From a virus (lineage: Duplodnaviria > Caudoviricetes), in IMG/VR virus record IMGVR_UViG_3300010368_000012, positions 1 through 63,866 of that record: 63,866 nt of DNA; one strand, given 5' to 3'. Position 1 is the stretch's first letter; every line of letters starts with the position of its first letter. This document shows positions 38,799-61,137 of this stretch, piece after piece. The notes under the pieces are model-generated. The model saw only the letters and a list, made by a program, of their open reading frames with translations, was not told where the DNA came from and did no database searches. The translations under genes were made by a program, and so were the position numbers.

Positions 38799-38922
38799 AA
38801 CGATCCCCTGCATCTATCTGTGCCGGTCCATCAGGATTATGTAACCTTCCTTCTGGATCATAATAATAGATGTTGAGAAACCTATCACCACTTTCAGTTA
38901 TATAATGGTGTAATGGTTTCAT
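38788..38922 (-). CDS. 44-aa single-repeat HxxDGPA mini-gene or deletion remnant (not in ORF track)
   Basis: MKPLHHYITESGDRFLNIYYYDPEGRLHNPDGPAQIDAGDRYEA*; coupled to both neighbours. Confidence 0.7.
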   Translation of the reverse strand: MKPLHHYITESGDRFLNIYYYDPEGRLHNPDGPAQIDAGDRYEA

Positions 38923-45726: not shown

Positions 45727-46103
45727 GGCTCTTCCCTCACGGTTTTGCCATCAATACCAGTAGGATGTTGTGCGAAGTGTGACCATAGTGCTGGCAACCA
45801 TCCACCCGGCATCACACCAGCGGCAACAGTAGCTCTAAAACCATAACCCGGTCCTAAACACCATTGTGATCTTCCGTCATCACTTTTATCTATCTGTGCC
45901 GGTCCATCATAGCGGTGATAATGTGCTTGCCATAACCATGCTTCGAAATCCTTACGGATAACCGCAGGCCCATTGGGATTATGATGAAGACCATGGTCAA
46001 ACCATTCTTGGTCACCATTCGCCGAAATTTCGGCTGGTCCATCAGAACGATGCTGCTCGCCATCAGGGTCATAATAATAGATGCTATACTTTTGGTTCAT
46101 CAT
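45723..46103 (-). CDS. HRxDGPA-repeat protein with truncated W..HF...GIDG domain
   Basis: Three repeats; ends WLPALWSHF..GIDGKTVREEP. Confidence 0.75.
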   Translation of the reverse strand: MMNQKYSIYYYDPDGEQHRSDGPAEISANGDQEWFDHGLHHNPNGPAVIRKDFEAWLWQAHYHRYDGPAQIDKSDDGRSQWCLGPGYGFRATVAAGVMPGGWLPALWSHFAQHPTGIDGKTVREEP

Positions 46104-47119
46104 AATCTCCCAACAAACATAATATCAATTTTATTGATATTATGTTGTTGATTATCTTCGTCACCATAACCAAGATAAGCCAAATGATGTAATTGTTCTA
46201 ATACTTCTGCATGAGTATATGAATTCATTTTGAGTCTTCTGAAAAACGAACTCGGTACATTAGGTTTTGTCGTACCGGTGCTATGATCCAATCCACAAAA
46301 AGTATCACCAACCCACCACTGACATTCATATTTATTGGGTGTGACCATATGTATTTTAGCCGGTCCACCTATACGATGTACTTCACCATGTTGATTAAAG
46401 TATATAATACGGTGTTTAGCCCCATTGATTACCAATCCATCCAAATCAGTTTTAGCAGATTCATTAATAGGTTCTTTATAATGAATTGCCGCATCATAGA
46501 ACGCATCCACAACGCGCCAGAGTTCACCGGATAACATTGACTTTAGTTCTTCATCTTTATCCATGATCTTCCAAACAGCACGCGCCTTATCAGCCATACT
46601 TTGATCAATGTAATCTTTATCGGTTAATGATGTTAAGGCGCTATCCCGTGTAGTTACACCATCAATACCAATAGCATCAGGACCACCAAGTTTATTGAAG
46701 TGGAACCATAGAAGCGGTAACCATCTTCGTGGTAGATCGCCCGGATAATCAAATATTGGAGGGAAACCATGGATCGCCCAATTGTTTTCTTGATATGGCC
46801 CATCATAGCGATGTCGTTTAGCATCAAACCAATACTCTTCGGTCTGAGTTTCATGATCAATCTTTGCCGGTTTATTACCGTCACGATGTAGATGGCCGCC
46901 TAGATAATAAGCTTCCTGTGCAACATGGCCAGACGAATCATATTCAATGGTCGCAGGCTTATCACCGATGCGATGAACAACACCATGAACATAATAGGAT
47001 TCAAATATTTTCTTACCAGTGTGAGAACTATATAGAACGAAAGCCGGTCCACCTATACGATGCCGCTCATCATTCTTATTGAAATAAATTTCGCGAATAC
47101 CGTTATCATTCAATTCCAT
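46100..47119 (-). CDS. two-module HRxxGPA-repeat protein
   Basis: Four repeats plus W..HF..GIDG domain, INE site, then a second repeat/helical module; ATAAATA 5 nt upstream. Confidence 0.8.
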   Translation of the reverse strand: MELNDNGIREIYFNKNDERHRIGGPAFVLYSSHTGKKIFESYYVHGVVHRIGDKPATIEYDSSGHVAQEAYYLGGHLHRDGNKPAKIDHETQTEEYWFDAKRHRYDGPYQENNWAIHGFPPIFDYPGDLPRRWLPLLWFHFNKLGGPDAIGIDGVTTRDSALTSLTDKDYIDQSMADKARAVWKIMDKDEELKSMLSGELWRVVDAFYDAAIHYKEPINESAKTDLDGLVINGAKHRIIYFNQHGEVHRIGGPAKIHMVTPNKYECQWWVGDTFCGLDHSTGTTKPNVPSSFFRRLKMNSYTHAEVLEQLHHLAYLGYGDEDNQQHNINKIDIMFVGRL

Positions 47120-47123
47120 GGAT

Positions 47124-47717
47124 TTATTTATCCGTGGAACCTCTTAATCCTGATAATCTACCAGCACCCAACTTGATCATTGCGTCTACATACATGGTTT
47201 TAACCCAATTGGTTGAAATATCATTGTCCATTTCAAAGTATTCATCCATAAATTCCCAAGCACTATGCACATTGTCTTTGTTTAATTTGGGCAAATAGTT
47301 CTTATCCATCAGGACGGTTAAACAAGACTCTCGCGTAGTTACCTTATCAACCCCGATGCCATTATTATTGTGAAAATGAGTCCATATGAATGCTGGCCAT
47401 AAGGTTGGTGCTTTGTCTTCTGAGGAAGATTGCTCTGCGGGTCCAACATCGTGTAATGACCAAAAAACAAACGTCTCATTATTATTGGTTCGCATTATTG
47501 CAGGTCCATCATAACGATGATATTGACTTAACCACATATAGAAATATCCATCCTTGGTCAGTATAGCCGGTCCATCTTCTCTATGAGTAGCACCCTGCTT
47601 ATAATATTGTTCACGAACTATTTCACCATTGGTATCATACCAAATAGAAGCAGGCTTGCCGGTTCGGTGTTCTTCACCATGTTTATTAAAGTAATGTTCA
47701 GAATAGGCTATAGTCAT
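47124..47717 (-). CDS. HRxDGPA-repeat protein with WTHFH...GVD domain
   Basis: Three repeats; paralogue of 47714 and 46100. Confidence 0.8.
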   Translation of the reverse strand: MTIAYSEHYFNKHGEEHRTGKPASIWYDTNGEIVREQYYKQGATHREDGPAILTKDGYFYMWLSQYHRYDGPAIMRTNNNETFVFWSLHDVGPAEQSSSEDKAPTLWPAFIWTHFHNNNGIGVDKVTTRESCLTVLMDKNYLPKLNKDNVHSAWEFMDEYFEMDNDISTNWVKTMYVDAMIKLGAGRLSGLRGSTDK

Positions 47718-48292
47718 AATGTATCTGATACTCCTAAATCACGTTTGGTGTTAATATAAGCAGTATCAACTATTAATGCTTCTACATATTCGCGTGATGC
47801 AAACATTGAATCCAACGTATCCCAAACTTCATATATCGGATGTACTTCTTCTTCAGTATAATAGCCCTTCTTGATCAATGCAGCTAAACAAGTTTCACGG
47901 GTCATCTTACCATCAACCCCAATATCATTCATGTTATGGAAATGAGTCCATACCACTGCTAACCAATTGATAGGTGGTTTTTTAATTCTTGAAGATATAC
48001 GAAAATACGCAATATCATACAATGTCCAAAAAGTTTGGTGACCACTGGGTGTTGAATTATATGGACCATCATAACGATGACGCTGACCTAACCAATAATA
48101 ATAAGTTACGTCATCACTATCAAGTATCCCAGTTTCAATTACAGCTGGTCCATCGGTTCGGTGAAGTATACCGTCCTTGTGGTAAACTCGTTCAATTATA
48201 TCGTCATTCTTGTCATATACAATTTTGGCAGGACCATCACTACGATGTTTCCTGCCTTCTTTGTTGAAATATTGGACCGTATAACCAAGCAT
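47714..48292 (-). CDS. HRxDGPA-repeat protein with WTHFH...GVD domain
   Basis: Three repeats; TATAAATA 4 nt upstream. Confidence 0.8.
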   Translation of the reverse strand: MLGYTVQYFNKEGRKHRSDGPAKIVYDKNDDIIERVYHKDGILHRTDGPAVIETGILDSDDVTYYYWLGQRHRYDGPYNSTPSGHQTFWTLYDIAYFRISSRIKKPPINWLAVVWTHFHNMNDIGVDGKMTRETCLAALIKKGYYTEEEVHPIYEVWDTLDSMFASREYVEALIVDTAYINTKRDLGVSDTL

Positions 48293-48296
48293 CGGT

Positions 48297-48304
48297 TATT
48301 TATA
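48297..48304 (-). promoter_or_regulatory. T4-type late promoter TATAAATA heading the repeat-protein cluster
   Basis: TATTTATA on + strand. Confidence 0.7.
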
Positions 48305-48650
48305 GGTTATGTAATTTCCGTTTGGCCACATTGATACAATCGATCACCTTGTCCAAAGATGCTTGCGGCGACCCATGAACCGGATAAGCTTCAACAAAGC
48401 GCGTGAGTAGGCTCTGTGCGTCTGCAATGATGTCTTCAACGGACTTCTCGTTCTTGATTACACGTTCAATCCAGAGTTCACGAGAGTCTTCGAACATTGG
48501 AGAGTTCCATGTCTGCCAATTGACAGCAGAATCATCAAAAGCTTTGGCGACAAAATAGCCTAACTGTTTCTCAACACCATTGACTTTAATCATGCTCGGC
48601 CATCTATCAGAACCGATTAATACAATATTGTCTTTCATGATCATCTCCAA
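48300..48650 (-). CDS. hypothetical protein
   Basis: Open frame; GGAG RBS suggests the start is at MKDNIV. Confidence 0.7.
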   Translation of the reverse strand: MEMIMKDNIVLIGSDRWPSMIKVNGVEKQLGYFVAKAFDDSAVNWQTWNSPMFEDSRELWIERVIKNEKSVEDIIADAQSLLTRFVEAYPVHGSPQASLDKVIDCINVAKRKLHNL

Positions 48651-48663
48651 AGCTATCAGGTAA

Positions 48664-49068
48664 TTATACCGTAGCTTGGTAATGTTTCAGATGAAAGGCT
48701 TTTATAATAGGTGAAAGTTTTTTCTCAAAGTTGTCATAATATTCATCAGACTTTCTTTTTGAAACGAAAAAACAAATCGAATAATAACAATTATCTAACA
48801 CTTCGACATATATCCAATAATTATTTGATGGAAAATTTGGACCGGTCGTAGAAAACCAAGAAAACGAATCGTCGCGTTTATGAAATGCTACATTCTTCAT
48901 TATCTCATTTGGAAGCATATAATGTGGACCGACATCGGTTTGTGCTAGAGAGTGATCATACCATCTATCTACATTGGCCGAGTGCACTTCTTTGTATAGT
49001 TTATCACTCAGCTCTGCATAACGGACATTAAGGGATTGATAGTGTTGATCACAGATAGAACTAAGCAT
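48664..49068 (-). CDS. MxDxxxxxH array paralogue
   Basis: MLSSICDQH start; VLDNCYY hairpin; IIKAFH C-helix. Confidence 0.75.
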   Translation of the reverse strand: MLSSICDQHYQSLNVRYAELSDKLYKEVHSANVDRWYDHSLAQTDVGPHYMLPNEIMKNVAFHKRDDSFSWFSTTGPNFPSNNYWIYVEVLDNCYYSICFFVSKRKSDEYYDNFEKKLSPIIKAFHLKHYQATV

Positions 49069-49366
49069 CAATCTGTCCTTTATACTTTCTCCGTACTCTG
49101 TCAATTATCTTGGATATTGGTGCTCTCAATTTATTATCAACACCCTCTTGTGATATAATTGCAAACAATATATTGTCTCTCAAGATTAATAATGGTTGCC
49201 TATAGATGCACATTACCGAAAACTTAGATACGACCTTGCTATTATACATAACCATACGGGTTATACTACGATCTACATCCACTAACGAATTCTCAATTTC
49301 ATCAGTCATGTTAAGGTGAATCTGTTCTATTTTGGTTTGGTGTTCCGCAATCATTTGATCAATCAT
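49061..49366 (-). CDS. MxDxxxxxH array paralogue
   Basis: MIDQMIAEH start; 8-nt overlap. Confidence 0.75.
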   Translation of the reverse strand: MIDQMIAEHQTKIEQIHLNMTDEIENSLVDVDRSITRMVMYNSKVVSKFSVMCIYRQPLLILRDNILFAIISQEGVDNKLRAPISKIIDRVRRKYKGQIDA

Positions 49367-49778
49367 CTTGGCCTCGCGTATCGTAAAAGCGTTTGTGAGC
49401 CTCATCAACTATTGTAATAAGGGTTTGGGCCAGTCGATCATATCGATCATACTTTGATCCACCAAGGTCATTATTGACCGGGTTACCATATCGAATAATA
49501 TAAATAAGATGATCCCGTTTGGCAACGAACCACCAATCAATTCCATTTCTATCATTGGTGGTTAACCAGTTTTCACGATTGCCATCCGCATGTAGATCAA
49601 TAATAGGAGGAACAACCCACCAGTCTGGTATCTCATCATGCGCAAGAAGGCCAATTTCAGGTGCAAACCTATAGACAGTATCTGGCATACTAGGTACATG
49701 CGTTTTTACAAATTGAACCCACTTGGATATGTGATAAGCAATTTGATCATCATGATCTTGTAACATAGCATCAATCAT
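49359..49778 (-). CDS. MxDxxxxxH array paralogue
   Basis: MIDAMLQDH start; IVDEAHKRFY end. Confidence 0.75.
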   Translation of the reverse strand: MIDAMLQDHDDQIAYHISKWVQFVKTHVPSMPDTVYRFAPEIGLLAHDEIPDWWVVPPIIDLHADGNRENWLTTNDRNGIDWWFVAKRDHLIYIIRYGNPVNNDLGGSKYDRYDRLAQTLITIVDEAHKRFYDTRGQDD

Positions 49779-50190
49779 GGTGTGCCCAACCATAAGCCTG
49801 ATGGTATCCTTTATGAACCTCGATAATCAATTCCTTGATACGATTGATCATCTCGGTTCTTGAAATACTATACTTTAGAATATGCTCATATGCAACCTTG
49901 TAATATACCCCATCATGAACCATGTGTATTATAGTTTTGTTACCTTCGGAATCAATTGTACCATTGCCACCATTCATACATTCATACAATAGCGCGGCAT
50001 TACCAGAATCATTACCAGAGAATGGGGTTATCCATACGCCGGGGAAAGATTCATAATACGATCCTTTGTGGGTATGTTGCTCTCTCAATGTCACCATCAT
50101 TTCACGCAAACATTTTTTCAATAATCTACGTGCATCTGTATAAACCAAACGTACATCATCTATATGTTGATCCATCATTGCATCAAACAT
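49771..50190 (-). CDS. MxDxxxxxH array paralogue
   Basis: MFDAMMDQH start; VHDGVYY; IIEVHKGY. Confidence 0.75.
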   Translation of the reverse strand: MFDAMMDQHIDDVRLVYTDARRLLKKCLREMMVTLREQHTHKGSYYESFPGVWITPFSGNDSGNAALLYECMNGGNGTIDSEGNKTIIHMVHDGVYYKVAYEHILKYSISRTEMINRIKELIIEVHKGYHQAYGWAHHD

Positions 50191-50611
50191 CACAGTGATT
50201 CTTTTTATGGTATTCAATGATGTGCTTACATATCATCCGGGTATGTTCGCGTGCCGGTTCAGGAATGGTATAAGGATGATCATATCGAACATGATAGCAT
50301 ATACCATCAATCATCAAATAGATTGCAAGCTCTTTTGCGAAAACCTGAATAGACCCTGTGTGTCCTTCAATGTCTCGTCTGTTACTGAATACATTATACA
50401 ATGATCTTACATAATCACCATGTTGTACTGATGGTTTTATTTGCACTATTGGTAAAGTGCTCATTATCCGATCACCGACCGCGCGCCAGCTATAAGTGGC
50501 ATCAGCGTCCGATGATGACAGTCTTGTGATTAACAATTGTAATTGAGCAGAACTATCCAGATATTTTTGTTCTACCATTTTAAGATGGTGATCAAGCATT
50601 AAGGAAATCAT
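50183..50611 (-). CDS. MxDxxxxxH array paralogue
   Basis: MISLMLDHH start; MIDGICY; IIEYHKK. Confidence 0.75.
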   Translation of the reverse strand: MISLMLDHHLKMVEQKYLDSSAQLQLLITRLSSSDADATYSWRAVGDRIMSTLPIVQIKPSVQHGDYVRSLYNVFSNRRDIEGHTGSIQVFAKELAIYLMIDGICYHVRYDHPYTIPEPAREHTRMICKHIIEYHKKNHCDV

Positions 50612-51077
50612 AATACATCTCCTTTTGAATAAGATCAATCCGAGTTGCAATAATTGTAGCCAAATTGCATAACATAACATCCAATGGCATTACTCCTAAG
50701 TTCAATTCAATAACCACATGATATCTCAGACCCTCCAATTCAAAGACGAAATTTAATCTACAACGATTATTCAAAATTCCAATACTACCATCAAACCCAT
50801 CTAATGAATAACGCCGTTCCCCTTGAGTTCGCATAAACAGGTGATAATACGGAGGCGGCCAGAAGGGTTCATCTCTGAGCGCATGAATAGTGACGTGTTG
50901 ACTTATAATATTACTACTAACATGTTGGAAAATATCAGGTGGATATACAACAGCTGTTTCAGTCGGAGTCCACCAACCATCAACGAGTAATGGTAAGGCT
51001 TGATAAATCTTCTTTGTGATGTCTCTGTAACGTTCACGCAATACCTCAGAATGTTCGTCAATGAGTTGATTAATCAT
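50592..51077 (-). CDS. MxDxxxxxH array paralogue
   Basis: MINQLIDEH start; ELEGLRY; close relative of 51070. Confidence 0.75.
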   Translation of the reverse strand: MINQLIDEHSEVLRERYRDITKKIYQALPLLVDGWWTPTETAVVYPPDIFQHVSSNIISQHVTIHALRDEPFWPPPYYHLFMRTQGERRYSLDGFDGSIGILNNRCRLNFVFELEGLRYHVVIELNLGVMPLDVMLCNLATIIATRIDLIQKEMYYDFLNA

Positions 51078-51525
51078 AGTAAGAAAACTCTCGCACCATC
51101 TGATCAACTCGTTTAGTGATATCCATACCCAAATCGTACCAGCTTTCACCTAAATCCAAATTGTGATTAAGATCGATATTAATACGCAGACCATCTACGT
51201 TCATTCGTATTATTAGGTTCTTTGCGTCTGTTAATGCAATAATCCCTTGGAAATCGTGAAGGTTCTTCACAATTGATTCTGGGTCATGATAATAACATAA
51301 TGGGTGCGGTTCATTCCTAAGTGCCGTCACATAGGTAGTATGACATATTCTATATCTCTGAGGGGTGATATCTAACCAACCGCGAAATGAAGGGATATAA
51401 ATGATGGGGTCACCGCCCCACCATTTATCTATTACTCTTGGTACATCCCGTTTGATAATACCACGCAATTGATCATAACGGTTATTCAGTTTGGTAATAT
51501 GTGATTCAATCAATTGATCAATCAT
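51070..51525 (-). CDS. MxDxxxxxH array paralogue
   Basis: MIDQLIESH start; NVDGLRI. Confidence 0.75.
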   Translation of the reverse strand: MIDQLIESHITKLNNRYDQLRGIIKRDVPRVIDKWWGGDPIIYIPSFRGWLDITPQRYRICHTTYVTALRNEPHPLCYYHDPESIVKNLHDFQGIIALTDAKNLIIRMNVDGLRINIDLNHNLDLGESWYDLGMDITKRVDQMVREFSYYD

Positions 51526-51794
51526 GAGAACGAGCGTTCGCTTCGCCGTGTTAGAATCGCTTTATCAATAATCGTTTTAATCTCTTCCAGAGCGTCGATT
51601 GGATTATTGTTAGGATAGGTGGCTAAAACGTCACCAAGCTTCTGGTTGGCCTTCAGTAAGCTTTGTAGAGATGTTTCTTCAGGATAGTAGATAGCTTCTG
51701 CGATCTGACTAAAATGTGGGGATTCTTTCAACGGACATGCGTTCTCGCAAGCTGTCCAATCCGGTTGGGCTTGTTTGCACTTGGGGCACTTCAT
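51522..51794 (-). CDS. unrelated Cys-rich (Zn-finger-like) protein inserted in the array
   Basis: GGAG RBS before MKCPKC...C...CP. Confidence 0.65.
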   Translation of the reverse strand: MKCPKCKQAQPDWTACENACPLKESPHFSQIAEAIYYPEETSLQSLLKANQKLGDVLATYPNNNPIDALEEIKTIIDKAILTRRSERSFS

Positions 51795-52167
51795 CACAGA
51801 CTCCATCAGGGTTTGCGGATTGATCGAGAATACCTTTTTCAATCATACACAGTTTATCAAACCGATCAATAAAATAGTCACGATTTTCAGGTGACATGCA
51901 ATCAGGCGTTCTGATTGAAAAGGTTAAACCACGATGGATCACATAGATTTGAAGATACCGTTTCGCTACATCAGTGAAATGATAAATTGAACGATCATCG
52001 TGTTTAATCGTAATAGTGGCGGCTCTCATATTAGCACGATTGAATTCACCATTGAACACCTTGACGTGCTTAGAATGCAAACCAATAGCTTCTTCAAGGC
52101 GACCCGTTGAATGCATCAATGCTTCGCCTCTAGCTGCCTTGTGTCCTGCAATCATTTCTTTAATCAT
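51709..52167 (-). CDS. MxDxxxxxH array paralogue
   Basis: MIKEMIAGH start; IHRGLTF; tail runs into the next gene. Confidence 0.7.
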   Translation of the reverse strand: MIKEMIAGHKAARGEALMHSTGRLEEAIGLHSKHVKVFNGEFNRANMRAATITIKHDDRSIYHFTDVAKRYLQIYVIHRGLTFSIRTPDCMSPENRDYFIDRFDKLCMIEKGILDQSANPDGVCDEVPQVQTSPTGLDSLRERMSVERIPTF

Positions 52168-52354
52168 GTCATCACAACCGCTTTATATTTTTTCAAATAT
52201 TCTTTAGCATACTCAGTGTAATCAATCAACCATTCAGTAAAATCATCGATATCACCTTTAGTATCATATTTGAACCTGATACCTTTATGACGAAGCCAGA
52301 TAGAGGGGGATTGTCGCTCCCAATAATACCAAACTTGGCTATAGCATCATACAT
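52164..52354 (-). pseudogene. internally deleted, frameshifted array paralogue
   Basis: MYDAIAK start, then in another frame ...IWLRHKGIRFKY...FTEWLIDY...VVMT*; length 191 nt is not a multiple of 3. Confidence 0.7.
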
Positions 52355-52736
52355 GTTGTGTTCTCGATGTTTCAAATTCTTCTAACCAGTTAATGAACGC
52401 GGTTAAAATGTTTTCTTCAGATTCTATGAAGTCGAATTGATGTAATTTGATTGCACGTCCTTTATACATCGCCATATAATATGTAGGCATACGATTAGGT
52501 GATTTCTCACCGTATTCTTTCATAAAAGATTTACCACCAAACTCAACAGTGGTACTTACATAATCTGGCATAATCACCTTAGACAATATACGTCTGAGTG
52601 TGACATCATGAACGGGAACATGTTGTAGTAAAACCTCAACACCATCAATGGTTATAACCGAACCAAACTCTTCCACTTCGAGTCGAAATGTCTCAAAACA
52701 CTTTTTTAGATGATCATCAATAATGGTTTTCAACAT
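52347..52736 (-). CDS. MxDxxxxxH array paralogue
   Basis: MLKTIIDDH start; MYKGRAI; AFINWL. Confidence 0.75.
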   Translation of the reverse strand: MLKTIIDDHLKKCFETFRLEVEEFGSVITIDGVEVLLQHVPVHDVTLRRILSKVIMPDYVSTTVEFGGKSFMKEYGEKSPNRMPTYYMAMYKGRAIKLHQFDFIESEENILTAFINWLEEFETSRTQHV

Positions 52737-53071
52737 GGTATGTTACCTGTATGTTCTAATATCCAATCAACCATAACATTATAGGCTTCTTCATTGGTTG
52801 CAATTGATAATGGAATGAGTAACCAATAACCAACACCCTTGTATGTGGCTTCATAATATTTGGGTGCCATACCAACAGCCTTGGAGAACTGTACGCCTCT
52901 TATTAGTGGCCCACGAAGGTTGGGATTCCAATTTAATGCCCATCGAGCCAATCGTGATCCACTGACCACGGTAGAATATGTTCCGAGTTCGAATCTCCGG
53001 GCGGCTCGAATATGTGCTACAACGGTCGCATTACATTCATCTTCGTGCTGTTTAATGATTGCGTCAAACAT
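52730..53071 (-). CDS. MxDxxxxxH array paralogue
   Basis: MFDAIIKQH start; TYKGVGY; MVDWIL. Confidence 0.75.
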   Translation of the reverse strand: MFDAIIKQHEDECNATVVAHIRAARRFELGTYSTVVSGSRLARWALNWNPNLRGPLIRGVQFSKAVGMAPKYYEATYKGVGYWLLIPLSIATNEEAYNVMVDWILEHTGNIPC

Positions 53072-53152
53072 GGTTTTTGATTATCCAGTCAACGAATGCA
53101 GGTATGGTGCTAGGTTCTGATCTAAATGATATTGAATCATCTCATTTATCAT
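53064..53152 (-). pseudogene. array paralogue reduced to its N- and C-terminal motifs
   Basis: MINEMIQYHLDQN... joined out of frame to ...PAFVDWIIKNHV*. Confidence 0.7.
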
Positions 53153-53483
53153 TTGCTTTAACCCAGTCGATGCACCCATCAATCATGGTGTCTACAGTAG
53201 CAGCACGACCAGCTACATGAAACTCATATAATCGCCCTCTATACCATAACCGAAATCGTAGAATACCGGCATTGCCGTATTTGTCGTGTAATCGGGATAG
53301 GTAGCCACCTTGTTCAATTAGAACGCCGTTGTGTTCTGTGGGCCAATCCGGTTTAACTAAACAACGAAGACGATCAATATCAACATAACTATCATTGAAG
53401 GTTAACCCGGTATTATTGCGCCATGATTTGGTTACAAAATTATGACACATTTTGTCATGTTGTTTTATAATATCGCTAAACAT
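53142..53483 (-). CDS. MxDxxxxxH array paralogue
   Basis: MFSDIIKQH start; WYRGRLY; CIDWVK. Confidence 0.75.
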   Translation of the reverse strand: MFSDIIKQHDKMCHNFVTKSWRNNTGLTFNDSYVDIDRLRCLVKPDWPTEHNGVLIEQGGYLSRLHDKYGNAGILRFRLWYRGRLYEFHVAGRAATVDTMIDGCIDWVKANDK

Positions 53484-53913
53484 CGTTCCACATTTTTCTA
53501 TGCAGTTTCATTGCTCGCTGTGAAAACAATCCGGGTAAGCGGCGCTCGTTGTCTCTTTCTTCTGCTCTAAAATATCCAGTATATAACAAACCTTCTATAG
53601 TAAGACTGACATAAAATCTATATATCATTTTATTAGAAAATCCGCTAATCCGTTTCGTCACCGAGATAGATACAACACCATCACGTGTGTTGATCGTTTG
53701 GTAATCTGGAACTCTTTCACCAAATGAATCATATACATGTTTGATACTATCGTGTGGTAACCCCGGATCACGTTCGATTCGTATCTTCGTCGAACGCATT
53801 GAATTTCTTGCTTCAAACGTAGTTGATTCAAAGTGATCCTCCATCTTTGCGGCAATAGATCGCAACCGCGCGTTACTGTCGTCAATATGAGCATCAATCA
53901 TACTACGAATCAT
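53476..53913 (-). CDS. MxDxxxxxH array paralogue
   Basis: MIRSMIDAH start; TIEGLLY. Confidence 0.75.
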   Translation of the reverse strand: MIRSMIDAHIDDSNARLRSIAAKMEDHFESTTFEARNSMRSTKIRIERDPGLPHDSIKHVYDSFGERVPDYQTINTRDGVVSISVTKRISGFSNKMIYRFYVSLTIEGLLYTGYFRAEERDNERRLPGLFSQRAMKLHRKMWNDV

Positions 53914-54310
53914 AACACCTACGTGCCTCTATCACTGCTTGCTCTAATGTATCTATCGGTTTTGTGTAGGGTGCTGGCGGCATTTGCTTGGCAAAGAGTC
54001 TACCACGCGTTATCATTTCCATATCATTGTGCTTGATACAAAACACAATGCACGACTTTCTATAACGATCTTCGGGGATGTAATTATAATATATCACAAA
54101 CTTCGGTAGTGTGCGGTTGTGATCAAAATCCCAAACAGCGGTTTGTGGTTTAACATCGCGATCACCATAGTTGATAAATTCGCTTTTTAAGCTTAAACCA
54201 TTCAGGTAAAACTCCTGACCCAAGCTGAAACTATCACGCAATGAGTTTCGATAAGCAGTGAAACGATTGGTTAAGATAACATCAAGCATGTCATAAAAAG
54301 CATCAAACAT
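53903..54310 (-). CDS. array paralogue, MFDAFY subfamily
   Basis: MFDAFYDM start; EARRCYDS end. Confidence 0.75.
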   Translation of the reverse strand: MFDAFYDMLDVILTNRFTAYRNSLRDSFSLGQEFYLNGLSLKSEFINYGDRDVKPQTAVWDFDHNRTLPKFVIYYNYIPEDRYRKSCIVFCIKHNDMEMITRGRLFAKQMPPAPYTKPIDTLEQAVIEARRCYDS

Positions 54311-54713
54311 CATAGCACCTACGAGCTTCAATTACCACTAATTCTAATACGGATAATCCCTTATTCATCATTGTAGCGTGTGGTGGAAATTGCATTATAT
54401 AAAGTTTACCGCGTGTTAACATATTCATATCATCATGTTTGATACAGAATTCAATATACGCCTTGTTATTAAGGTCTTCGGGAATGTAATCATAATAGAT
54501 CGTGAACTTTGGTACTCTGTAACTGTAATCATAGTACTCATAATAACCCGCAGCAGTTTGTGGTGGATCATTTGGATTGTCATTGAATTCACCCGATAGC
54601 CCACTCAGGTAAAAATCTAGATCAAATTCGACCCCATCATTAAAAGACCTTATATATGCGAGGCGGCGTTTGTCACGTTTTCCGTTGAGCATGTCATAGA
54701 AGGCATCAAACAT
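54303..54713 (-). CDS. array paralogue, MFDAFY subfamily
   Basis: MFDAFYDM start; EARRCYDV end. Confidence 0.75.
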   Translation of the reverse strand: MFDAFYDMLNGKRDKRRLAYIRSFNDGVEFDLDFYLSGLSGEFNDNPNDPPQTAAGYYEYYDYSYRVPKFTIYYDYIPEDLNNKAYIEFCIKHDDMNMLTRGKLYIMQFPPHATMMNKGLSVLELVVIEARRCYDV

Positions 54714-55119
54714 CATAACATCTTCGGGCTTCAAGTGTGGCTAATTCTAAGATATCGATACCACGCGAAAAAGTCTGTTCACCATATTCGATCAACATCG
54801 TCATGGTTCCGGTTGTAGCCCGATTAGTATCTACCTCTTTGATGAAGAAATCAATGGCTTTGATATTATGCGTGGTGATGTGGTGTGTTTCGTAATAGAT
54901 AACCGCACCATCTATCTCTCGTTTATGAGGATAAAGCTTACCGTTTAAATATCGGCGCTCGGGGGCAAAACTTATGGACCTGCCTCCCCAGAATGTGTGA
55001 TTAAAATCACGCAAACTTGTTGAAAGGTTGCTCCGTATCTCTGCCTTGAACACATCTTGAAACAGTTTGATTCGTCTGTCTGTATCAAAGACTTTCATTT
55101 CATAGAAGGCATCAAACAT
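54706..55119 (-). CDS. array paralogue, MFDAFY subfamily
   Basis: MFDAFYEM start; EARRCYDV end. Confidence 0.75.
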   Translation of the reverse strand: MFDAFYEMKVFDTDRRIKLFQDVFKAEIRSNLSTSLRDFNHTFWGGRSISFAPERRYLNGKLYPHKREIDGAVIYYETHHITTHNIKAIDFFIKEVDTNRATTGTMTMLIEYGEQTFSRGIDILELATLEARRCYDV

Positions 55120-55528
55120 TATCGTAACACTTTCGTGCTTCGTTCATAGCCTCTGTCAGTACGTCAAGAAGGCGTGACTCCACTGAGATACCCATAACAC
55201 CATCAGCCATGGCGATGCGTCCTGTTGTCACCATAGCACTATCACACTGGGTAATGAAGAATGATAGCATATATGGATGACCTTCACGCCAATCCGCCAC
55301 ATTATAATAGATCACAGCGTCTTTGATCTTTCGCTGTTTTTTGTAATTTTGGCTTAATAGAAAACTGAAGCTTCCATCGGCGTCGATGAGTGCAATACGT
55401 TCCTTGTATTCGACAGAACTCACAGTGACACTATAATTGAATTTGATAACATCACGGAAACCGTAGATATAATTCCGGCGTCTAGTTTCTGTCTCTCTAA
55501 ATTTCATTTCATAGAAAGCATTAAACAT
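55112..55528 (-). CDS. array paralogue, MFDAFY subfamily
   Basis: MFNAFYEM start; EARKCYDNV end. Confidence 0.75.
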   Translation of the reverse strand: MFNAFYEMKFRETETRRRNYIYGFRDVIKFNYSVTVSSVEYKERIALIDADGSFSFLLSQNYKKQRKIKDAVIYYNVADWREGHPYMLSFFITQCDSAMVTTGRIAMADGVMGISVESRLLDVLTEAMNEARKCYDNV

Positions 55529-55865
55529 AATCATCAACCGATTTAATAATAGTATCGAGATACGGTATTATAAGTGTTTCTTCATCCTCGTGGCTATTTG
55601 AGAAAAATGACATACTGAATTGAAAATTATTATACCAGACTCTGATACGAATCAAAGTGTCCAACTTATTACTCGATATATAAAACAATCCCTTGTATTC
55701 ATCCGCCACATATGCATCCGATGCTGTGAATTCACATGAGGTCACCATTACGCCGGATACTTGGTTATTAACATCACAAAGCTTAACGCGAATGACATCT
55801 CTAACGTATACCATGGTTCTCTCGTGAACGATCCCGTGGTGATTATGTATCATATCATTGATCAT
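55521..55865 (-). CDS. MxDxxxxxH array paralogue
   Basis: MINDMIHNH start; LDTIIKSVDDY end. Confidence 0.75.
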   Translation of the reverse strand: MINDMIHNHHGIVHERTMVYVRDVIRVKLCDVNNQVSGVMVTSCEFTASDAYVADEYKGLFYISSNKLDTLIRIRVWYNNFQFSMSFFSNSHEDEETLIIPYLDTIIKSVDDYV

Positions 55866-56214
55866 AATATTCATCCATTGTCTGGATTATTATATCAAAG
55901 AGTTTAATCAAAACTGGATTCATGCCGCTTCGATTGAAGCAGGACTCGGTACGACAAACGAATGATGTACCCATGTATCCGATATAGATATAGGTTTCAT
56001 CTCGGTATTTGATTTTATACAATAGGTTTTTATGGCGCTCAACTGGGTATTCATATGGAATTAACCATGGCACCGCGAAGTATCTGAAATCGGTTATTCT
56101 GAGATTCAAATCACGGAAGTTCTGATAGAATATTTTTTCTAATTTAGAATGAAGAAAATTATCCAACCGCCCACGTGACAGGTCTTGGTGTTGTTTGATC
56201 ATGGCTTCAAGCAT
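55855..56214 (-). CDS. MxDxxxxxH array paralogue
   Basis: MLEAMIKQH start; GYMGTSF; FDIIIQTMDEY. Confidence 0.75.
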   Translation of the reverse strand: MLEAMIKQHQDLSRGRLDNFLHSKLEKIFYQNFRDLNLRITDFRYFAVPWLIPYEYPVERHKNLLYKIKYRDETYIYIGYMGTSFVCRTESCFNRSGMNPVLIKLFDIIIQTMDEYYDQ

Positions 56215-56240
56215 AATATTCATTCCACACGTGAGTGTGT

Positions 56241-56269
56241 ATGATATACTAATTATCGGAAGAAGTCAA
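56241..56269 (-). promoter_or_regulatory. sigma70-type early promoter inside the array
   Basis: TTGACT-17-TATCAT on - strand. Confidence 0.7.
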
Positions 56270-56310
56270 TGGAAACAGAGCATCAATTATTTGTTTAATG
56301 TCATCAAGCA

Positions 56311-56676
56311 TCAGATTGTTCCTCCGTATGGATACAGTTCATCTATACCCTGTTTGATGATGCTAAGGGTTTCTGTAAATTCTGTTATGCTTTGAAAACC
56401 ACGTGTACTGCCTATCATCACTATGCCGCGATATGATAATTTAAAACCATCACAACCACCAGTTTTATATTCAGAAGTACGGTTATATTTGATACCAAAC
56501 ATGGTTTGATATTGTGGTGGCATACTAGAAACAAAATAGGCTTCATCTTCAGCCACGCATGTGATTATACGTATTCCATACTGATTATAATCACCAACAT
56601 GAAACAATTCAGTGATACGGTTATGAGCCGTATTGTCAGATAATACCGAATGCTTATGGATCATTGCTTCTAACAC
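56311..56676 (-). CDS. MxDxxxxxH array paralogue
   Basis: GTG start MLEAMIHKH; SYRGIVM; LSIIKQGIDEL. Confidence 0.75.
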   Translation of the reverse strand: MLEAMIHKHSVLSDNTAHNRITELFHVGDYNQYGIRIITCVAEDEAYFVSSMPPQYQTMFGIKYNRTSEYKTGGCDGFKLSYRGIVMIGSTRGFQSITEFTETLSIIKQGIDELYPYGGTI

Positions 56677-56677
56677 A

Positions 56678-57076
56678 TCAATCCACCGCTTCTATATACT
56701 TGTCGTAATAGATCAGAGATTGTTTAGCGAACCGGTGAAGAAACACGTGAAAGTCTATACCAATCGAATCATTGATAACAATGAACCGGCTCTCAAAAGA
56801 AATACCATTGATGTTCAGGAACATGATCATTCTAAAATTGGATGTGCCGGGTTCATCCTTAACCGTGTACTTGATCATTTTTCCTTTGATACGTATCATG
56901 TCCCATTCGAATGCTTTAACTGCCGCACTCTCGTTATTAGAAAGGCTCGAATATCCGACCGTTGTGTAACCACGAGTAATATCTTTATAATAAGGATCAC
57001 TCAATAGAAAAGCGCGGGTTTCGAGTTTAGCAGTATGGTGTTCGGTGATATATTCAATCGATTGATTTATGTTCAT
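56678..57076 (-). CDS. array paralogue (extended N-terminus)
   Basis: SIEYITEHH; NINGISF. Confidence 0.7.
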   Translation of the reverse strand: MNINQSIEYITEHHTAKLETRAFLLSDPYYKDITRGYTTVGYSSLSNNESAAVKAFEWDMIRIKGKMIKYTVKDEPGTSNFRMIMFLNINGISFESRFIVINDSIGIDFHVFLHRFAKQSLIYYDKYIEAVD

Positions 57077-57500
57077 CTAATCGTTCCATACCCATTTTAT
57101 TGGTCAGTTTCATAATACCGGAAAACAACCGAGTATTCTTTCTAACAAATTCATATTCATTCGTACATGAACCACACTCTATTTCTACAAAGTATTCTAT
57201 ACCATGTAGTAAGATAATCATAGTGATAAAATTACTGGTGGTGTGACCGTCCATACGCCATCCACACAGTACTATATGTACGGTGAACAAACCATAAGGA
57301 GTTCGAAATGGTTTTACGGGGTTCGGATCAAATGATACCGCTGGTAGTTTTTGCATTGAGTAATAATAGACAGTTCTGATCTTTTTGGGGAAAGCCTTTC
57401 GTAAAGCCTTATCATATCGTTTATAATATTCGGAACGCAGATAGGTTACTCTCTGTGAATGAGAACGCACCATATTACGTATCAATTGATTTGTGCTCAT
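57054..57500 (-). CDS. array paralogue (extended N-terminus)
   Basis: LIRNMVRSH; TPYG; LLHGIEY. Confidence 0.7.
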   Translation of the reverse strand: MSTNQLIRNMVRSHSQRVTYLRSEYYKRYDKALRKAFPKKIRTVYYYSMQKLPAVSFDPNPVKPFRTPYGLFTVHIVLCGWRMDGHTTSNFITMIILLHGIEYFVEIECGSCTNEYEFVRKNTRLFSGIMKLTNKMGMERLDEHKSID

Positions 57501-57523
57501 TTAATCTATCCATACTAAGAGCG

Positions 57524-57943
57524 TTAAACATGTTCGTTCATTCGTTTTCGATTGAACTCAATTATATACTCTAATATACCATTAATCAACCGACCATTTC
57601 TACCATAGTATACGCGTGTTGGTATACGAGTATAATTCGGTATTGTAATCTCATACACCATCCCATCCTTAAAAAAGGATATTACAATATAAAACCAATC
57701 ACCAACCATGGGGTTGCGAGCATGTAAGGTAATCTCACCATATTGGGTTGGATATTTGAATGGCGTGTACTGTCTCGGAATAAGACCATCAGCCTTGAAG
57801 ACCTTGACCTGTTCCACATCAGTGTAGGTCAACTTCAACACACTTTCCAAAACATAGGCATATCTGAGACGCTTAGTTCCACAGGACTGCTTATGTTTTT
57901 GCACCATTCCCGTTAACAGTGGATGTTTTGTATCAAACAACAT
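57524..57943 (-). CDS. array paralogue (extended N-terminus)
   Basis: LLTGMVQKH; TQYG; FKDGMVY; YIIEFN. Confidence 0.7.
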   Translation of the reverse strand: MLFDTKHPLLTGMVQKHKQSCGTKRLRYAYVLESVLKLTYTDVEQVKVFKADGLIPRQYTPFKYPTQYGEITLHARNPMVGDWFYIVISFFKDGMVYEITIPNYTRIPTRVYYGRNGRLINGILEYIIEFNRKRMNEHV

Positions 57944-58295
57944 TGAAGTATTTTCTATGCTTTTTATAAACTATTTCTGCCATAGTGTCTGAATACTCAT
58001 GATATCGATCAGGGTTTGTATCATATACATAAAGTGTGTAATGGACACCTTGTATTGACATACAATATAGAACGGCTTTTTTATTAATGTTAATCAACTG
58101 ATGAATTTCAACATCACCCCACTTGGTTGGTGATGTGATCGCCAGTGTTTTATGTTGTCGATGATACTCTTGAACCAATAATACGACCTCGACAGGATGG
58201 AATGTCCTATTCATCACATCTTCCAAGTCGTTTCGATAATGCATTGTGTTATATTGGCACCGTTCCCGGTGTTGTTCACATATTGCCGGGAACAT
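57933..58295 (-). CDS. MxDxxxxxH array paralogue
   Basis: MFPAICEQH start; TKWG; SIQGVHY; KKHRKYF. Confidence 0.75.
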   Translation of the reverse strand: MFPAICEQHRERCQYNTMHYRNDLEDVMNRTFHPVEVVLLVQEYHRQHKTLAITSPTKWGDVEIHQLININKKAVLYCMSIQGVHYTLYVYDTNPDRYHEYSDTMAEIVYKKHRKYFNVV

Positions 58296-58719
58296 ATCGA
58301 TGTCTCACAATTAAATCAGTGAAACGATAGGCTAACCGAGTGATGGTTGCCTCTTCTGTGATGCGAGTTGTCAATAGTAATCGATATAGTTCACCAGCAT
58401 AAGAGAAAGATAGTTCTTTCATCAATGATGAATCATTAGTACCTATATCAGAATAAACAATGACCGATCCATCCATTGTCATTACAACTCCATGCAGTTG
58501 ACTGCTCTTCGGACGGTGAGATTGTTCTGGTGTCCATACATCAACGAAACCAGTGTGGCTGACTTCGATATGAATGTCAGAATCTGACGGAAAGGCGTTT
58601 TTGGTCTTGAACCAATTGAATTTTTTATTCTTATCGAATGCTGCTGTGATTCGTTTACGACCTTCATACAGAAGATCGTGTTTATGGGCTTGTGCAATGG
58701 AATCAATTATTTGTTGCAT
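58276..58719 (-). CDS. array paralogue
   Basis: MQQIIDSIAQAH; SYAGELY; LAYRFTDLI. Confidence 0.7.
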   Translation of the reverse strand: MQQIIDSIAQAHKHDLLYEGRKRITAAFDKNKKFNWFKTKNAFPSDSDIHIEVSHTGFVDVWTPEQSHRPKSSQLHGVVMTMDGSVIVYSDIGTNDSSLMKELSFSYAGELYRLLLTTRITEEATITRLAYRFTDLIVRHRYVPGNM

Positions 58720-59128
58720 TGTATTGCCTGATAAACTGGTGCACGAAATCAGAGAAATGGGTAGCGGCGTTGGTAGCGGCAATGTATGAGAACTCGTGTC
58801 CATTCCCTCTATGAAGCAGGTATGATAACCCTTCGTGGATTATGAGCAAGCAGTCAACGCATCCACGTTTGAAATGATCACCATCATGAGTGATCATAGA
58901 GACGACGCCATAAGCCGTATGAGAGACGGCAACAAGACGCGTTCCAAATTTACTATCTTCATTAACAGATGTTCTAAACGAAGTTGGGGTGAAACTCATA
59001 ATTCGCACAGACGAAAAAACAGAAATACAATCAACCCATGTATATTTTCTGAATGCGTCTTCAAACATACGATCACGACGATTATACGCTTGTGTTTCAT
59101 GTTCTTTTATAATTTGATCAATCATCAT
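58703..59128 (-). CDS. MxDxxxxxH array paralogue
   Basis: MIDQIIKEH; TAYG; IHEGLSY. Confidence 0.75.
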   Translation of the reverse strand: MMIDQIIKEHETQAYNRRDRMFEDAFRKYTWVDCISVFSSVRIMSFTPTSFRTSVNEDSKFGTRLVAVSHTAYGVVSMITHDGDHFKRGCVDCLLIIHEGLSYLLHRGNGHEFSYIAATNAATHFSDFVHQFIRQYNATNN

Positions 59129-59520
59129 TTTACATTTTTGTTAAGCATATTAATGACCCGTTTGGCAATCGTGATAGCAGTCGATCCCTTCACGGCTCGA
59201 TTAAGTCTAACACCAATATGATAATCCTGAAAGGATATACTCATGAACCGGCTTATATTTAGATTACTATCTAAACTGATCCAGAAGCAACAATCCTCGT
59301 GACGATGATTGATCATATGATGGTGATCACGACCACGGAGTCTGTATTCTATCTTGTTATCGCTATCATAATTGGCTCGTTGAATGATCACACTAGCCAT
59401 TGGTATACCACCAACGCGAGTCCAATTACGATGGATCATTTCATGAATGAGCGCATACAATAGGTCTGTGTGTACATCCTGAGTGATCTGATAATGCTGT
59501 CTGGCGATTGCATCAAGCAT
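59125..59520 (-). CDS. MxDxxxxxH array paralogue
   Basis: MLDAIARQH start; IAKRVINML. Confidence 0.75.
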   Translation of the reverse strand: MLDAIARQHYQITQDVHTDLLYALIHEMIHRNWTRVGGIPMASVIIQRANYDSDNKIEYRLRGRDHHHMINHRHEDCCFWISLDSNLNISRFMSISFQDYHIGVRLNRAVKGSTAITIAKRVINMLNKNVK

Positions 59521-60007
59521 GGTCTTTGAAATCTTTGTTCAATTGAATAATGACATCAATAAACCGATTGGCCAACTTTTTGAGCACTGAGTATGATGTT
59601 AATGCATCTTTATAATAGAGGATGTAATGATAACCTTGGTAGACATATTCTATACCTTGTGCTATATGATAGTTCGCGTCATCCGTCACCATCATATAAG
59701 ACCGTGTAGGTCGTATGATGATCACCATTCCGTCATCCAACGTTAGAACATCATCTATTTGCTCATACATGAAAGATTTAGATACGGCGTGTGTTCGTTC
59801 GTTGTCAATATAGTTCCAAAGAGGATCAACCCGAGTAATATACACACATTCGGCTTGCCGTAAGCGATCAGGTGTTTTCAACCAATCGGAACACGACATC
59901 TTTTTGATTACATCGGTCGCATACTCTATGAAAGCTTTTCCCGTGATGCGACGATGAAGTTTAATATCAATGAAACTAGCCGGTATCATCTGAAGGCTCC
60001 TACTCAC
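59513..60007 (-). CDS. probable first, divergent array paralogue
   Basis: C-half VYQGYHY...LANRFIDVII matches 58276; N-terminal motif degenerate. Confidence 0.65.
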   Translation of the reverse strand: MSRSLQMIPASFIDIKLHRRITGKAFIEYATDVIKKMSCSDWLKTPDRLRQAECVYITRVDPLWNYIDNERTHAVSKSFMYEQIDDVLTLDDGMVIIIRPTRSYMMVTDDANYHIAQGIEYVYQGYHYILYYKDALTSYSVLKKLANRFIDVIIQLNKDFKDHA

Positions 60008-60015
60008 AATGTGGA

Positions 60016-60306
60016 TCAGTTATACCGGCTTTGAATAATATGATGTGCCACATCGAGTTCTTTTTTCAATTCTTCAATACGTTGTTTCATGGCAGCAACA
60101 ATGGATACTATCCATGAAACACCCACTGCGGAGAACGCCTTGTTAAAATGTTCGTCTTGTTCCACAGGCATAACCACATAGATGAAATCATGCATTACCG
60201 GGAAGATACCGGCTATTATATGAATCAAACCAAGCATCGCAATAAACCAAGCGAACCCTTTAACCCATCGTGGAGAAATATCACTAAAGTCTTTATCTTT
60301 AATCAT
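60016..60306 (-). CDS. two-TM membrane protein with C-terminal coiled coil
   Basis: 96-aa ORF; two hydrophobic segments. Confidence 0.7.
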   Translation of the reverse strand: MIKDKDFSDISPRWVKGFAWFIAMLGLIHIIAGIFPVMHDFIYVVMPVEQDEHFNKAFSAVGVSWIVSIVAAMKQRIEELKKELDVAHHIIQSRYN

Positions 60307-60761
60307 TGTTTCACCGTCACAATCAGTTTTTCGGGTTGAGGCACTTCATAATAGTTTTCCAACCATTGTTTGATCAAGTTTGAATAGAAGGAATAATCCT
60401 CATCGACTGGATGGGATAGATCATACATCAAGACATATGATTCAATCTTCTGCATGAAGGAAGCCAATAGGTTCCAATCTTCACGAACCATTTTAAATAC
60501 ATCGAGTTGAACCAGATCGATTCGTTTGGCAATTAGTTTGGTGATAAAGCGATCACAGATATTAGCTTCAGCTGTGCCTACTTGTTTAGACATACGTTTG
60601 GACACCACCATCATGTTGACCAACACTTTGGCATCACCATCATAGAGCACATGTGATTTATCATTCATACCAACGAAGATACGGTTTTCCCGAGTGGAGT
60701 AACCGTCTTCGCCTAGAAGTGCTATCACTTCTGGTTCATATGAATATTCATCATCAGACAT
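60303..60761 (-). CDS. hypothetical protein
   Basis: 152-aa ORF; coupled to neighbours. Confidence 0.7.
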   Translation of the reverse strand: MSDDEYSYEPEVIALLGEDGYSTRENRIFVGMNDKSHVLYDGDAKVLVNMMVVSKRMSKQVGTAEANICDRFITKLIAKRIDLVQLDVFKMVREDWNLLASFMQKIESYVLMYDLSHPVDEDYSFYSNLIKQWLENYYEVPQPEKLIVTVKQ

Positions 60762-61137
60762 TAGTTTTCACTTCATCAAAATCAGGTACAGCATATTTGT
60801 GTTTAAACTTTACACCATAACCACTATGTCTGTCAAGTAGTCGTTCAGCCATTTCTATATAGGTGTTATCAAATATATAAAGATCAGCATCTATTTTAAG
60901 AGCTGGCACTAATTGCTTAACGGATTTTATAAAGTTTTGCATACGGGTTGCATCGTAATAAAGAATGCGACCACCATGAGAGTGCCGATTAATAACTTTT
61001 GAATATCCGAAATCAATATGACTTTTGGCATATTGATTAAGCTTGGCAAGAAACGCATTCCAGCAACGGGGCGTTACTTTGAATATGGTTTTGCCGTTAT
61101 GATTACGGACAATATATGTTGCTTTTTTACGTACCAT
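60754..61137 (-). CDS. hypothetical protein
   Basis: 127-aa ORF. Confidence 0.7.
   Translation of the reverse strand: MVRKKATYIVRNHNGKTIFKVTPRCWNAFLAKLNQYAKSHIDFGYSKVINRHSHGGRILYYDATRMQNFIKSVKQLVPALKIDADLYIFDNTYIEMAERLLDRHSGYGVKFKHKYAVPDFDEVKTNV

Follow-up and report, generated by a model that had tools for sequence, protein, structure and literature searches.

A tandem array of 27 small, strongly diverged genes in the accessory block of a probable freshwater jumbo phage

Why should a phage genome carry 27 small genes side by side, packed nearly end to end, whose products scarcely resemble one another? The question is raised by the region from 48664 to 60007 on the minus strand of IMG/VR record IMGVR_UViG_3300010368_000012, a stretch of 63,866 bases, here called the window, which is one fragment of a larger phage genome. 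To judge from sequence comparisons and models, the array is most likely the product of an old tandem expansion, specific to its lineage, of one family of small alpha/beta proteins in a jumbo-phage accessory block. Its likeliest function, with a probability that we put at roughly 0.4, would be that of a germline repertoire of intracellular binders directed against different, variable host proteins.

The region contains 27 intact, co-oriented genes of 101 to 161 amino acids (aa), numbered m01 to m27, which tile 95% of it and whose starts were set at a shared N-terminal motif. It also holds three decayed remnants and one inserted zinc-ribbon-like open reading frame (ORF). With a stop codon roughly every 16 codons in each of the six frames, chance would not yield 27 tiling ORFs of 101 codons or more, and these are real genes. 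An earlier reading of this DNA from the sequence alone (the sequence-only reading) had described a tandem array of about 27 small, co-oriented, mostly overlapping genes, and 20 of the 26 junctions between the intact genes are indeed overlapping, 11 of them in an 8-nt form, ATGnnT(GA/AA/AG). This 8-nt overlap constrains codon 2 to nnT and codon 3 to D/E, N/K or S/R, which accounts exactly for the start "M-h-[DENS]" of many members; the caution given at the time, that M-h-D is partly forced by an ATGnnTGA overlap, was thus justified, residues 2 and 3 being forced at the 11 junctions of the 8-nt type. At the DNA level conservation is highest at the junctions; two of those in the m13-m16 group, for instance, share 83% identity over 63 nt.

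The remainder of the start motif, including His9, is not forced by the overlap, as had also been argued. The strict motif M-h-x-x-h-h-x-x-H is present at residue 1 in 18 of the 27 members and in none of 223 natural control ORFs. In a MAFFT alignment the His column is filled in 23 of 27 members, the exceptions being m13-m16, and there are further columns for a mid-protein Pro (21/27), a hairpin Gly (22/27) and a hairpin Tyr (15/27), followed by a C-terminal helix with periodic Ile/Leu and a late Tyr. The proposed common late hairpin is recognizable as G-x-x-[YF] in the late region of 23 members, compared to 43 of the 223 controls.

Beyond these features the members are extremely divergent, with a mean pairwise identity of about 15%, and most pairs lie below BLAST detection; the BLAST links that exist are mainly between neighbors (m13-16, m6-7, m4-5, m18-19, m22-23 and m24-27). 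Searches with jackhmmer, which recruited none of 753 decoys, halt at four groups, {1,2,4,5,6,7}, {13-16}, {21-23} and {24,27}, that together cover 15 of the 27 members. When the first 12 residues were removed and each group was left out of the profile in turn, 10 of the 27 members ranked in the top 1% against 628 decoys (0.3 expected) and 14 in the top 5% (1.4 expected). A single hidden Markov model (HMM) built from all members performs poorly, with 11 of 27 ranking first among 632 decoys in a leave-one-out test, again without the first 12 aa. The expectation of a profile extending past the first residues is therefore borne out statistically for about half of the members and not for the others. 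Neighbors are the most alike, as predicted: once the first 12 aa are left out, 14 of the 27 members score best with an adjacent gene, compared to 2.0 expected, and none of 5,000 permutations reached 14. Our reading is that all 27 genes belong to one family, on statistical grounds for about half of them and by inference from position, motif and architecture for the rest; for roughly a third, motif and architecture are the only evidence.

An AlphaFold2 (AF2) model of m04, calculated from the 27-row alignment, has a helix at residues 2-38, strands at 51-56, 77-82, 85-92 and 95-102, and a second helix at 111-133, with a mean predicted local distance difference test score (pLDDT) of 72.6 and a predicted template modeling score (pTM) of 0.67. 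The single-sequence model of the same protein in the Atlas has a pLDDT of 0.47, and the improvement obtained with the alignment indicates that the alignment carries fold information. Alignment and model together place a long N-terminal helix, a variable segment, a beta-meander and a C-terminal helix in that order, in agreement with the shared frame and variable middle noted earlier, and variation in length is concentrated after the N-terminal helix.

The genes arose by local tandem duplication and have been lost by internal deletion. Three gaps between genes carry decayed copies (52168-52346, 53072-53141 and 56215-56310), confirming the reported deletion remnants. Synonymous sites are saturated in all eight pairs tested (proportion of synonymous differences, 0.66 to 0.87), which means that the duplications are old and that ratios of nonsynonymous to synonymous substitution (dN/dS) by region are uninformative. 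In the closest pair, m13 and m14, dN is about 0.38 and dS about 1.85. The copies have long been kept under constraint, with 27 of 30 intact and dN below dS in this closest pair. The birth-and-death process envisaged in the sequence-only reading is supported as regards duplication and deletion, by the similarity of neighbors, the three remnants and the complete turnover of the syntenic array in a relative (see below), but it has been slow, since the synonymous sites are saturated.

Searches of the databases returned little except the array itself. The profile made from the 27-member alignment (A1) gave 27 matches at E ≤ 0.001 among 1.84 billion representative proteins, all of them the array's own: 21 are identical to members, four represent members with a different start call, and two are near-identical variants. 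Word-indexed protein searches likewise found only array proteins, and tblastn with m04 found no match. Scans of all 27 members against Pfam, PHROGs, NCBIfam and PADLOC gave no family on more than one member and none at the curated cutoff, profile searches against solved structures in the PDB were empty, Foldseek gave nothing at E ≤ 0.001 against PDB and BFVD, and the ESM Atlas held no feature match for m04. The earlier failure to recognize a known family is thus repeated across all of these resources, and the family appears to be lineage-restricted.

The window encodes a portal protein (Portal_T4, E 2e-71) and a major capsid protein (Gp23, E 4e-89), both of T4 type. The latter shares no more than 57% identity with the capsid proteins of isolated phages, its best matches being jumbo phages of 350 to 470 kb; these include the Asteriusvirus members EJP2 and PBECO4, and identity to Asteriusvirus and other 350-kb phages is 56%. 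The array proteins are present letter for letter on a contig of 317,353 bp, and the IMG/VR contig G001, of 335,552 bp with terminal repeats, has a capsid protein 93% identical to that of the window. Given the T4-type portal and capsid proteins, the 317,353-bp contig and the size of G001, we take the window to be a jumbo-phage fragment. The stretch was found in DNA runs labeled aquatic or freshwater metagenome, and neither the array nor the head genes gave a match in a DNA search of a phage collection. By these comparisons the source is an uncultured freshwater, T4-core, Rak2-related jumbo phage, of which the window is only a piece. Elsewhere in the window, a TelA-like (toxic anion resistance) protein encoded at 8008-9405 on the plus strand (PF05816, E 6e-42) adjoins the major capsid gene, and two tRNA-Arg(TCT) genes lie 1.2 kb apart at 21076-21150 and 22288-22364, also on the plus strand.

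The array is placed in an accessory ("hyperplastic") block, flanked by a GroES-like gene and by a second array of MORN-variant-like paralogs. This second tandem array, directly downstream at 38454-48292 on the minus strand, consists of about 11 genes of 119 to 380 aa with repeated "YFNK.G..HR..GPA" units; its members give weak MORN_2 matches below the cutoff (E 0.035 to 0.053) and also match three G001 genes at 38264-41476.

Relative to the window, G001 is inverted but otherwise collinear, and its corresponding slot is informative. Between its GroES-like and MORN-like genes there is no DNA match to window positions 48000-61000, and the A1 profile, which in the window recovers all 27 genes and nothing else, finds no match there at E ≤ 1. 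The slot is occupied instead by 26 co-oriented genes of 116 to 158 aa (G001:22143-32316), 22 of whose 25 junctions overlap by 1 to 14 nt, mostly by 4, 8 or 11 nt. These proteins start M-I-x-D-x-I and end ..F-x-x-Y-[FYH].., have Pro and Gly-x-Tyr columns, and are invariant in M1 and Glu18 (26/26). They form a coherent family, in that 14 of 26 jackhmmer queries recruit 20 to 23 members and no decoys. Searches with their profile returned only their own proteins, Pfam and PHROGs gave no family on more than one of the 26 and none at the curated cutoff, and the ESM Atlas gave scores of only 0.79 to 0.82 for a member, below the level of trust. The AF2 model of a G001 member (pLDDT 89.7, pTM 0.82) has helices at 2-32 and, tentatively, 40-44, strands at 63-68, 74-80 and 84-91, and a helix at 97-111, giving the same order of elements as in m04: a long N-terminal helix, a spacer, a three-stranded meander and a C-terminal helix.

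The two arrays therefore share a genomic slot, orientation relative to the flanks, gene size and number, 4/8/11-nt overlaps and an aromatic-rich C-terminal helix, as well as the M-I-x-D-x-I start, the mid-protein Pro, the hairpin Gly-x-Tyr columns and the helix/strand order of the AF2 models. They differ in that Glu18 is invariant in G001 where the window has His9, and in the greater coherence of the G001 family. An hhalign comparison of the arrays gave P = 0.026 with a score above all 60 column shuffles. A claim of homology on this basis was set aside: rotated controls reached 16.6, compared to the real score of 17.3, and with control scores this near we treat homology as not shown. Other accessory proteins of the window phage are only 30 to 60% identical to their G001 counterparts, which makes it plausible that orthologous arrays could have diverged past recognition. 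The G001 array may plausibly be such an ortholog; the alternative would be replacement by an unrelated family.

Some further features were seen in G001 and other relatives. A third paralog family of about 232 to 272 aa, with N termini such as MRLRNIVE and MKSLKTYL, lies at G001:32345-38267 between the small-gene array and the MORN-like genes, and no counterpart of it was found in the window. The only large gap in the G001 array, of 360 nt, contains an ORF resembling a 5'-truncated array remnant (positions 3462-3749 in a numbering where 12345 is G001:32345) that retains the hairpin and the C-terminal helix (..ELKNWFEDYY..). The A1 profile has no match in G001, in the contigs G002 to G005 or in EJP2; G002, with a capsid protein 55% identical, has no run of six or more small co-oriented ORFs, and in EJP2 no such run is detectable with either profile, A1 or A2, apart from one match at E 0.03 inside a 1,013-aa ORF.

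What might such an array do? A repertoire of binders is suggested by the range of isoelectric points among the members (4.8 to 9.7), by the fixed frame with its variable segment, and by the long retention of the copies. The genes would be read as one long minus-strand transcript, with the overlaps permitting translational coupling along the array. Each would yield a soluble intracellular protein on a common frame, composed of a long N-terminal helix, a three- to four-stranded meander and a C-terminal helix, with the segment between N-terminal helix and meander differing in length and sequence from member to member. The binders could then neutralize or redirect variable host proteins, such as defense or toxin components, in infection, and the conserved polar residue of the N-terminal helix (His9 here, Glu18 in G001) may mark a shared contact. 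A more ambitious version, which we consider rather doubtful, would see in the array an inherited library of about 27 binders on one previously unseen small fold. The N- and C-terminal helices and the meander would form a fixed frame, with one conserved polar contact on the N-terminal helix, and a hypervariable segment would allow each copy to recognize a different host defense or toxin protein. Turnover of the set between sister phages would be rapid enough to erase orthology, with the locus, the copy number and the fold being preserved; it would be the phage counterpart of a germline-encoded receptor library.

Several observations weigh against the interpretation as a repertoire of binders. 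The model rests on a single window member, m04, at moderate confidence, and the conserved ends could equally be explained by maintenance of the fold alone, with two helices holding it together. No member matched an anti-defense, immunity or defense-related model in Pfam, PHROGs, NCBIfam or PADLOC. Sequence comparison does not demonstrate homology of the window array to that of G001, as HMM scores equal those of decoys and jackhmmer gives no cross-recruitment. Members m13-16, m6-7, m19-21, m24 and m26 lack between-group profile signal in the test without the first 12 residues (628 decoys), and since about half of the members give no such signal, their membership rests on motif, position and architecture. 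Of 159 contigs from four other runs, 148 are at least 99% identical to the stretch, which gives no sign of rapid ongoing diversification. Finally, the sigma70 promoters said to point into the array did not hold up, as sigma70-like sites occur at chance frequency (70, compared to 63.1 ± 7.3 in shuffles).

The conserved N terminus invites a different explanation, in which the members are packaged or ejected internal proteins, with the first ~9 residues serving as a capsid- or virion-targeting peptide, as in IPI-III of T4, and the variable bodies as cargo that enters with the DNA and disarms host nucleases. A conserved N terminus on a variable body, in a phage with a T4-type head, is what such proteins would show, and a comparable pattern is seen in EJP2, whose record has 14 tandem RCC1-like genes of 368 to 460 aa at 318571-335572 with a conserved N terminus, MLPF[VA]RM..YGN, and variable bodies. 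Because these genes do not overlap, their N terminus is no overlap artifact, suggesting that N-terminal tags recur in the arrays of this phage group. In the window, however, residues 2 and 3 are forced by the 8-nt overlap, and conservation reaches the Pro, the Gly-x-x-Tyr and the C-terminal helix, which argues against a tag alone. The prohead protease of T4 recognizes (L/I)-x-E, and this motif is not enriched in residues 4-25 of the members (8/27, compared to 59/223 controls), with Glu8 in only 4 of 27. In addition, some 35 kb separates the array, in its accessory block, from the head genes, and we regard packaging as improbable. Docking on one hub, such as a protease of phage or host origin, a chaperone, RNA polymerase or a structure of the virion, would put the conserved helices to use in another way, with the members acting as adaptors or regulators. 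A polar residue has been kept among paralogs of about 15% identity (His in 23/27 here, Glu18 in 26/26 in G001), and GroES-like and AAA ATPase genes are encoded within the window, but in a small alpha/beta domain one would expect the terminal helices to pack against the sheet and form the core, and m13-m16 do without His9; a single shared partner, as proposed in the sequence-only reading, seems unlikely to us.

Tandem, hyperdiverged, small alpha/beta proteins would also suit a poly-immunity array, in which each member neutralizes a different polymorphic toxin or abortive-infection effector in the manner of bacterial orphan immunity gene arrays. MORN_2 repeats occur in YwqK-type immunity proteins, which lends the neighboring array at 38454-48292 some relevance here, but its MORN_2 matches are below threshold, there is no adjacent toxin gene, and none of the 27 members matched an Imm, SUKH or antitoxin model of Pfam at E values up to 10, leaving us to give this explanation little credence. 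Equally little can be said for a near-neutral genomic "accordion," that is, duplicated filler DNA for an enlarged capsid, whose copies have no specific function. Tandem duplication is proposed as a route of jumbo-phage genome growth in the excerpted text of PMC5646251, and three copies have decayed. The other 27 of the 30 copies are intact despite synonymous saturation, though, with dN below dS in the closest pair, the start/stop overlaps and fold-defining residues have been retained, and a comparable array is maintained in G001. The repertoire of binders remains our preferred reading of the locus.

The individual genes, all on the minus strand, are described here in the order of transcription, from m27 to m01. 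The array's first gene, m27 (59513-59989; 158 aa, MIPASFIDIKLH), has a blastp link to m24 at 2e-4 and ranked 1 against the 628 decoys in the leave-group-out test. It is followed by m26 (59125-59520; 131 aa, MLDAIARQH), whose membership comes from N-terminal motif and architecture only, by m25 (58703-59125; 140 aa, MIDQIIKEH), and by m24 (58276-58719; 147 aa, MQQIIDSIAQAH), which pairs with m27. The group m21-m23 comprises m23 (57933-58295; 120 aa, MFPAICEQH), m22 (57524-57943; 139 aa), in which a 9-residue leader precedes the motif (..LLTGMVQKH), and m21 (57054-57500; 148 aa, MSTNQLIRNMVRSH). Membership of m20 (56678-57076; 132 aa, MNINQSIEYITEHH) comes from architecture only. A GTG codon starts m19 (56311-56676; 121 aa, (M)LEAMIHKH), which pairs with m18 (55855-56214; 119 aa, MLEAMIKQH); between them, the third remnant (56215-56310) is an N-terminal stub only, MLDDIKQIIDALFPLTSSDN and then a stop codon, which overlaps the m19 stop and contains a TTGACT-17-TATCAT site.

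Next are m17 (55521-55865; 114 aa, MINDMIHNH) and the group without His9, namely m16 (55112-55528; 138 aa, MFNAFYEM), m15 (54706-55119; 137 aa, MFDAFYEM), m14 (54303-54713; 136 aa, MFDAFYDM) and m13 (53903-54310; 135 aa, MFDAFYDM), with a BLAST E value of 7e-35 between m14 and m13. They are followed by m12 (53476-53913; 145 aa, MIRSMIDAH), of which a public variant is known, and m11 (53142-53483; 113 aa, MFSDIIKQH). The second remnant (53072-53141) combines an N-terminal stub, MINEMIQYH.., with the final 12 codons of a member in a different frame, which give the end of the C-terminal helix (..VDWIIKNHV and a stop). After m10 (52730-53071; 113 aa, MFDAIIKQH) and m09 (52347-52736; 129 aa, MLKTIIDDH), the first remnant (52168-52346) reads MYDAIAKFG.. 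in one frame and a C-terminal helix, ..EWLIDYTEYAKEYLKKYK.., in another, and has an ATGA overlap with m08.

Gene m08 (51709-52167; 152 aa, MIKEMIAGH) lacks its normal stop and reads about 40 codons into the next ORF, giving an aberrant C-terminal tail of ~40 aa. That inserted ORF (51522-51806; about 90 to 94 aa) is not a member; it has a zinc-ribbon-like CxxC..C..C pattern, with a weak Zn_ribbon_3 match only (E 0.48), a terminal amphipathic helix and an ATGA overlap with m07. The last seven genes are m07 (51070-51525; 151 aa, MIDQLIESH), with which jackhmmer recruits six members; m06 (50592-51077; 161 aa, MINQLIDEH), which sets the upper size bound of the array; m05 (50183-50611; 142 aa, MISLMLDHH); the modeled member m04 (49771-50190; 139 aa, MFDAMMDQH); m03 (49359-49778; 139 aa, MIDAMLQDH), which ranked 1 in the leave-group-out test; m02 (49061-49366; 101 aa, MIDQMIAEH), the shortest member, in which the middle is reduced; and m01 (48664-49068; 134 aa, MLSSICDQH).

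Two of these genes vary among samples. The public variant of m12 has seven substitutions, all seven within residues 29-50, just after the N-terminal helix. In m17, a divergent allele patch at 55749-55848 (residues ~6-39), with over 30 substitutions, was seen in contigs from two other runs belonging to two studies. Its depth is only 2 to 2.3, and it is best treated as a lead; elsewhere the array hardly varies from sample to sample. Hypermutation of the kind caused by diversity-generating retroelements was considered and rejected, as the contigs are mostly at least 99% identical and the sole DNA repeats are the gene junctions, with no search made for a reverse transcriptase. As to expression, the T4 late-promoter word TATAAATA occurs 10 times in the window, compared to 5.3 expected, and not at all on the minus strand inside the array; the count is too weak to assign a temporal class. 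One copy, at 48297-48304 on the minus strand, lies a few bases upstream of the first MORN-like gene, after the array and a 116-aa ORF at 48300-48650.

For most jumbo-phage genes no function is known, and tandem expansions are among the few clues to where selection acts on these genomes. The locus offers a clean test case, with 27 old, intact, diverged copies of an orphan fold and a parallel array of 26 copies in the same slot of a sister phage. If the copies do bind different targets, they would constitute a natural library for finding host defense and toxin components in uncultured freshwater bacteria, and also a small, evolvable protein scaffold. If they are instead virion cargo or hub adaptors, the conserved N-terminal helix would define a new targeting signal. 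In both cases, the family is missing from the current databases of protein families and structures.

Among known systems, the internal proteins IPI, IPII and IPIII of T4 are accessory proteins of small size in which about 10 conserved N-terminal residues precede highly variable bodies; they have an anti-defense role and polymorphic loci. The window array shares with them a conserved N-terminal segment and a variable body in a T4-type phage; it differs in having 27 copies rather than a few, in the lack of enrichment of the cleavage motif and in conservation that extends beyond a tag. For the fold of the array proteins, alpha-beta-alpha sandwiches of the Roadblock, longin, GAF and IclR-effector type are the comparisons to be named. 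The array of EJP2, which we take to belong to the same genus as 121Q, is built from RCC1-like proteins of 370 to 460 aa and represents another family.

The closest precedents for the array as such come from phage G and from 121Q, the latter in the phage group nearest to the window by capsid protein. More than 30 similar genes are described in phage G and in 121Q in the excerpted text of Hua et al. (2017; PMC5646251), an expansion of about 35 zinc-ribbon copies in phage G is described in the portion consulted of Iyer et al. (2021; PMC7824862), and the point about tandem arrays in jumbo phages is repeated in an excerpt of a 2026 review (PMC13282480). As far as these excerpts go, the arrays agree with that of the window in consisting of dozens of co-oriented tandem paralogs, in their position in a jumbo-phage accessory region and in having been read as tandem duplications, but their genes are "very similar" or carry a recognizable zinc ribbon, whereas the window array has about 15% identity and no relatives. 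Tandem arrays as such thus have precedents among jumbo phages. The novelty lies in the family, in its having diverged so extremely while the packing was conserved, and in the parallel array of a sister phage.

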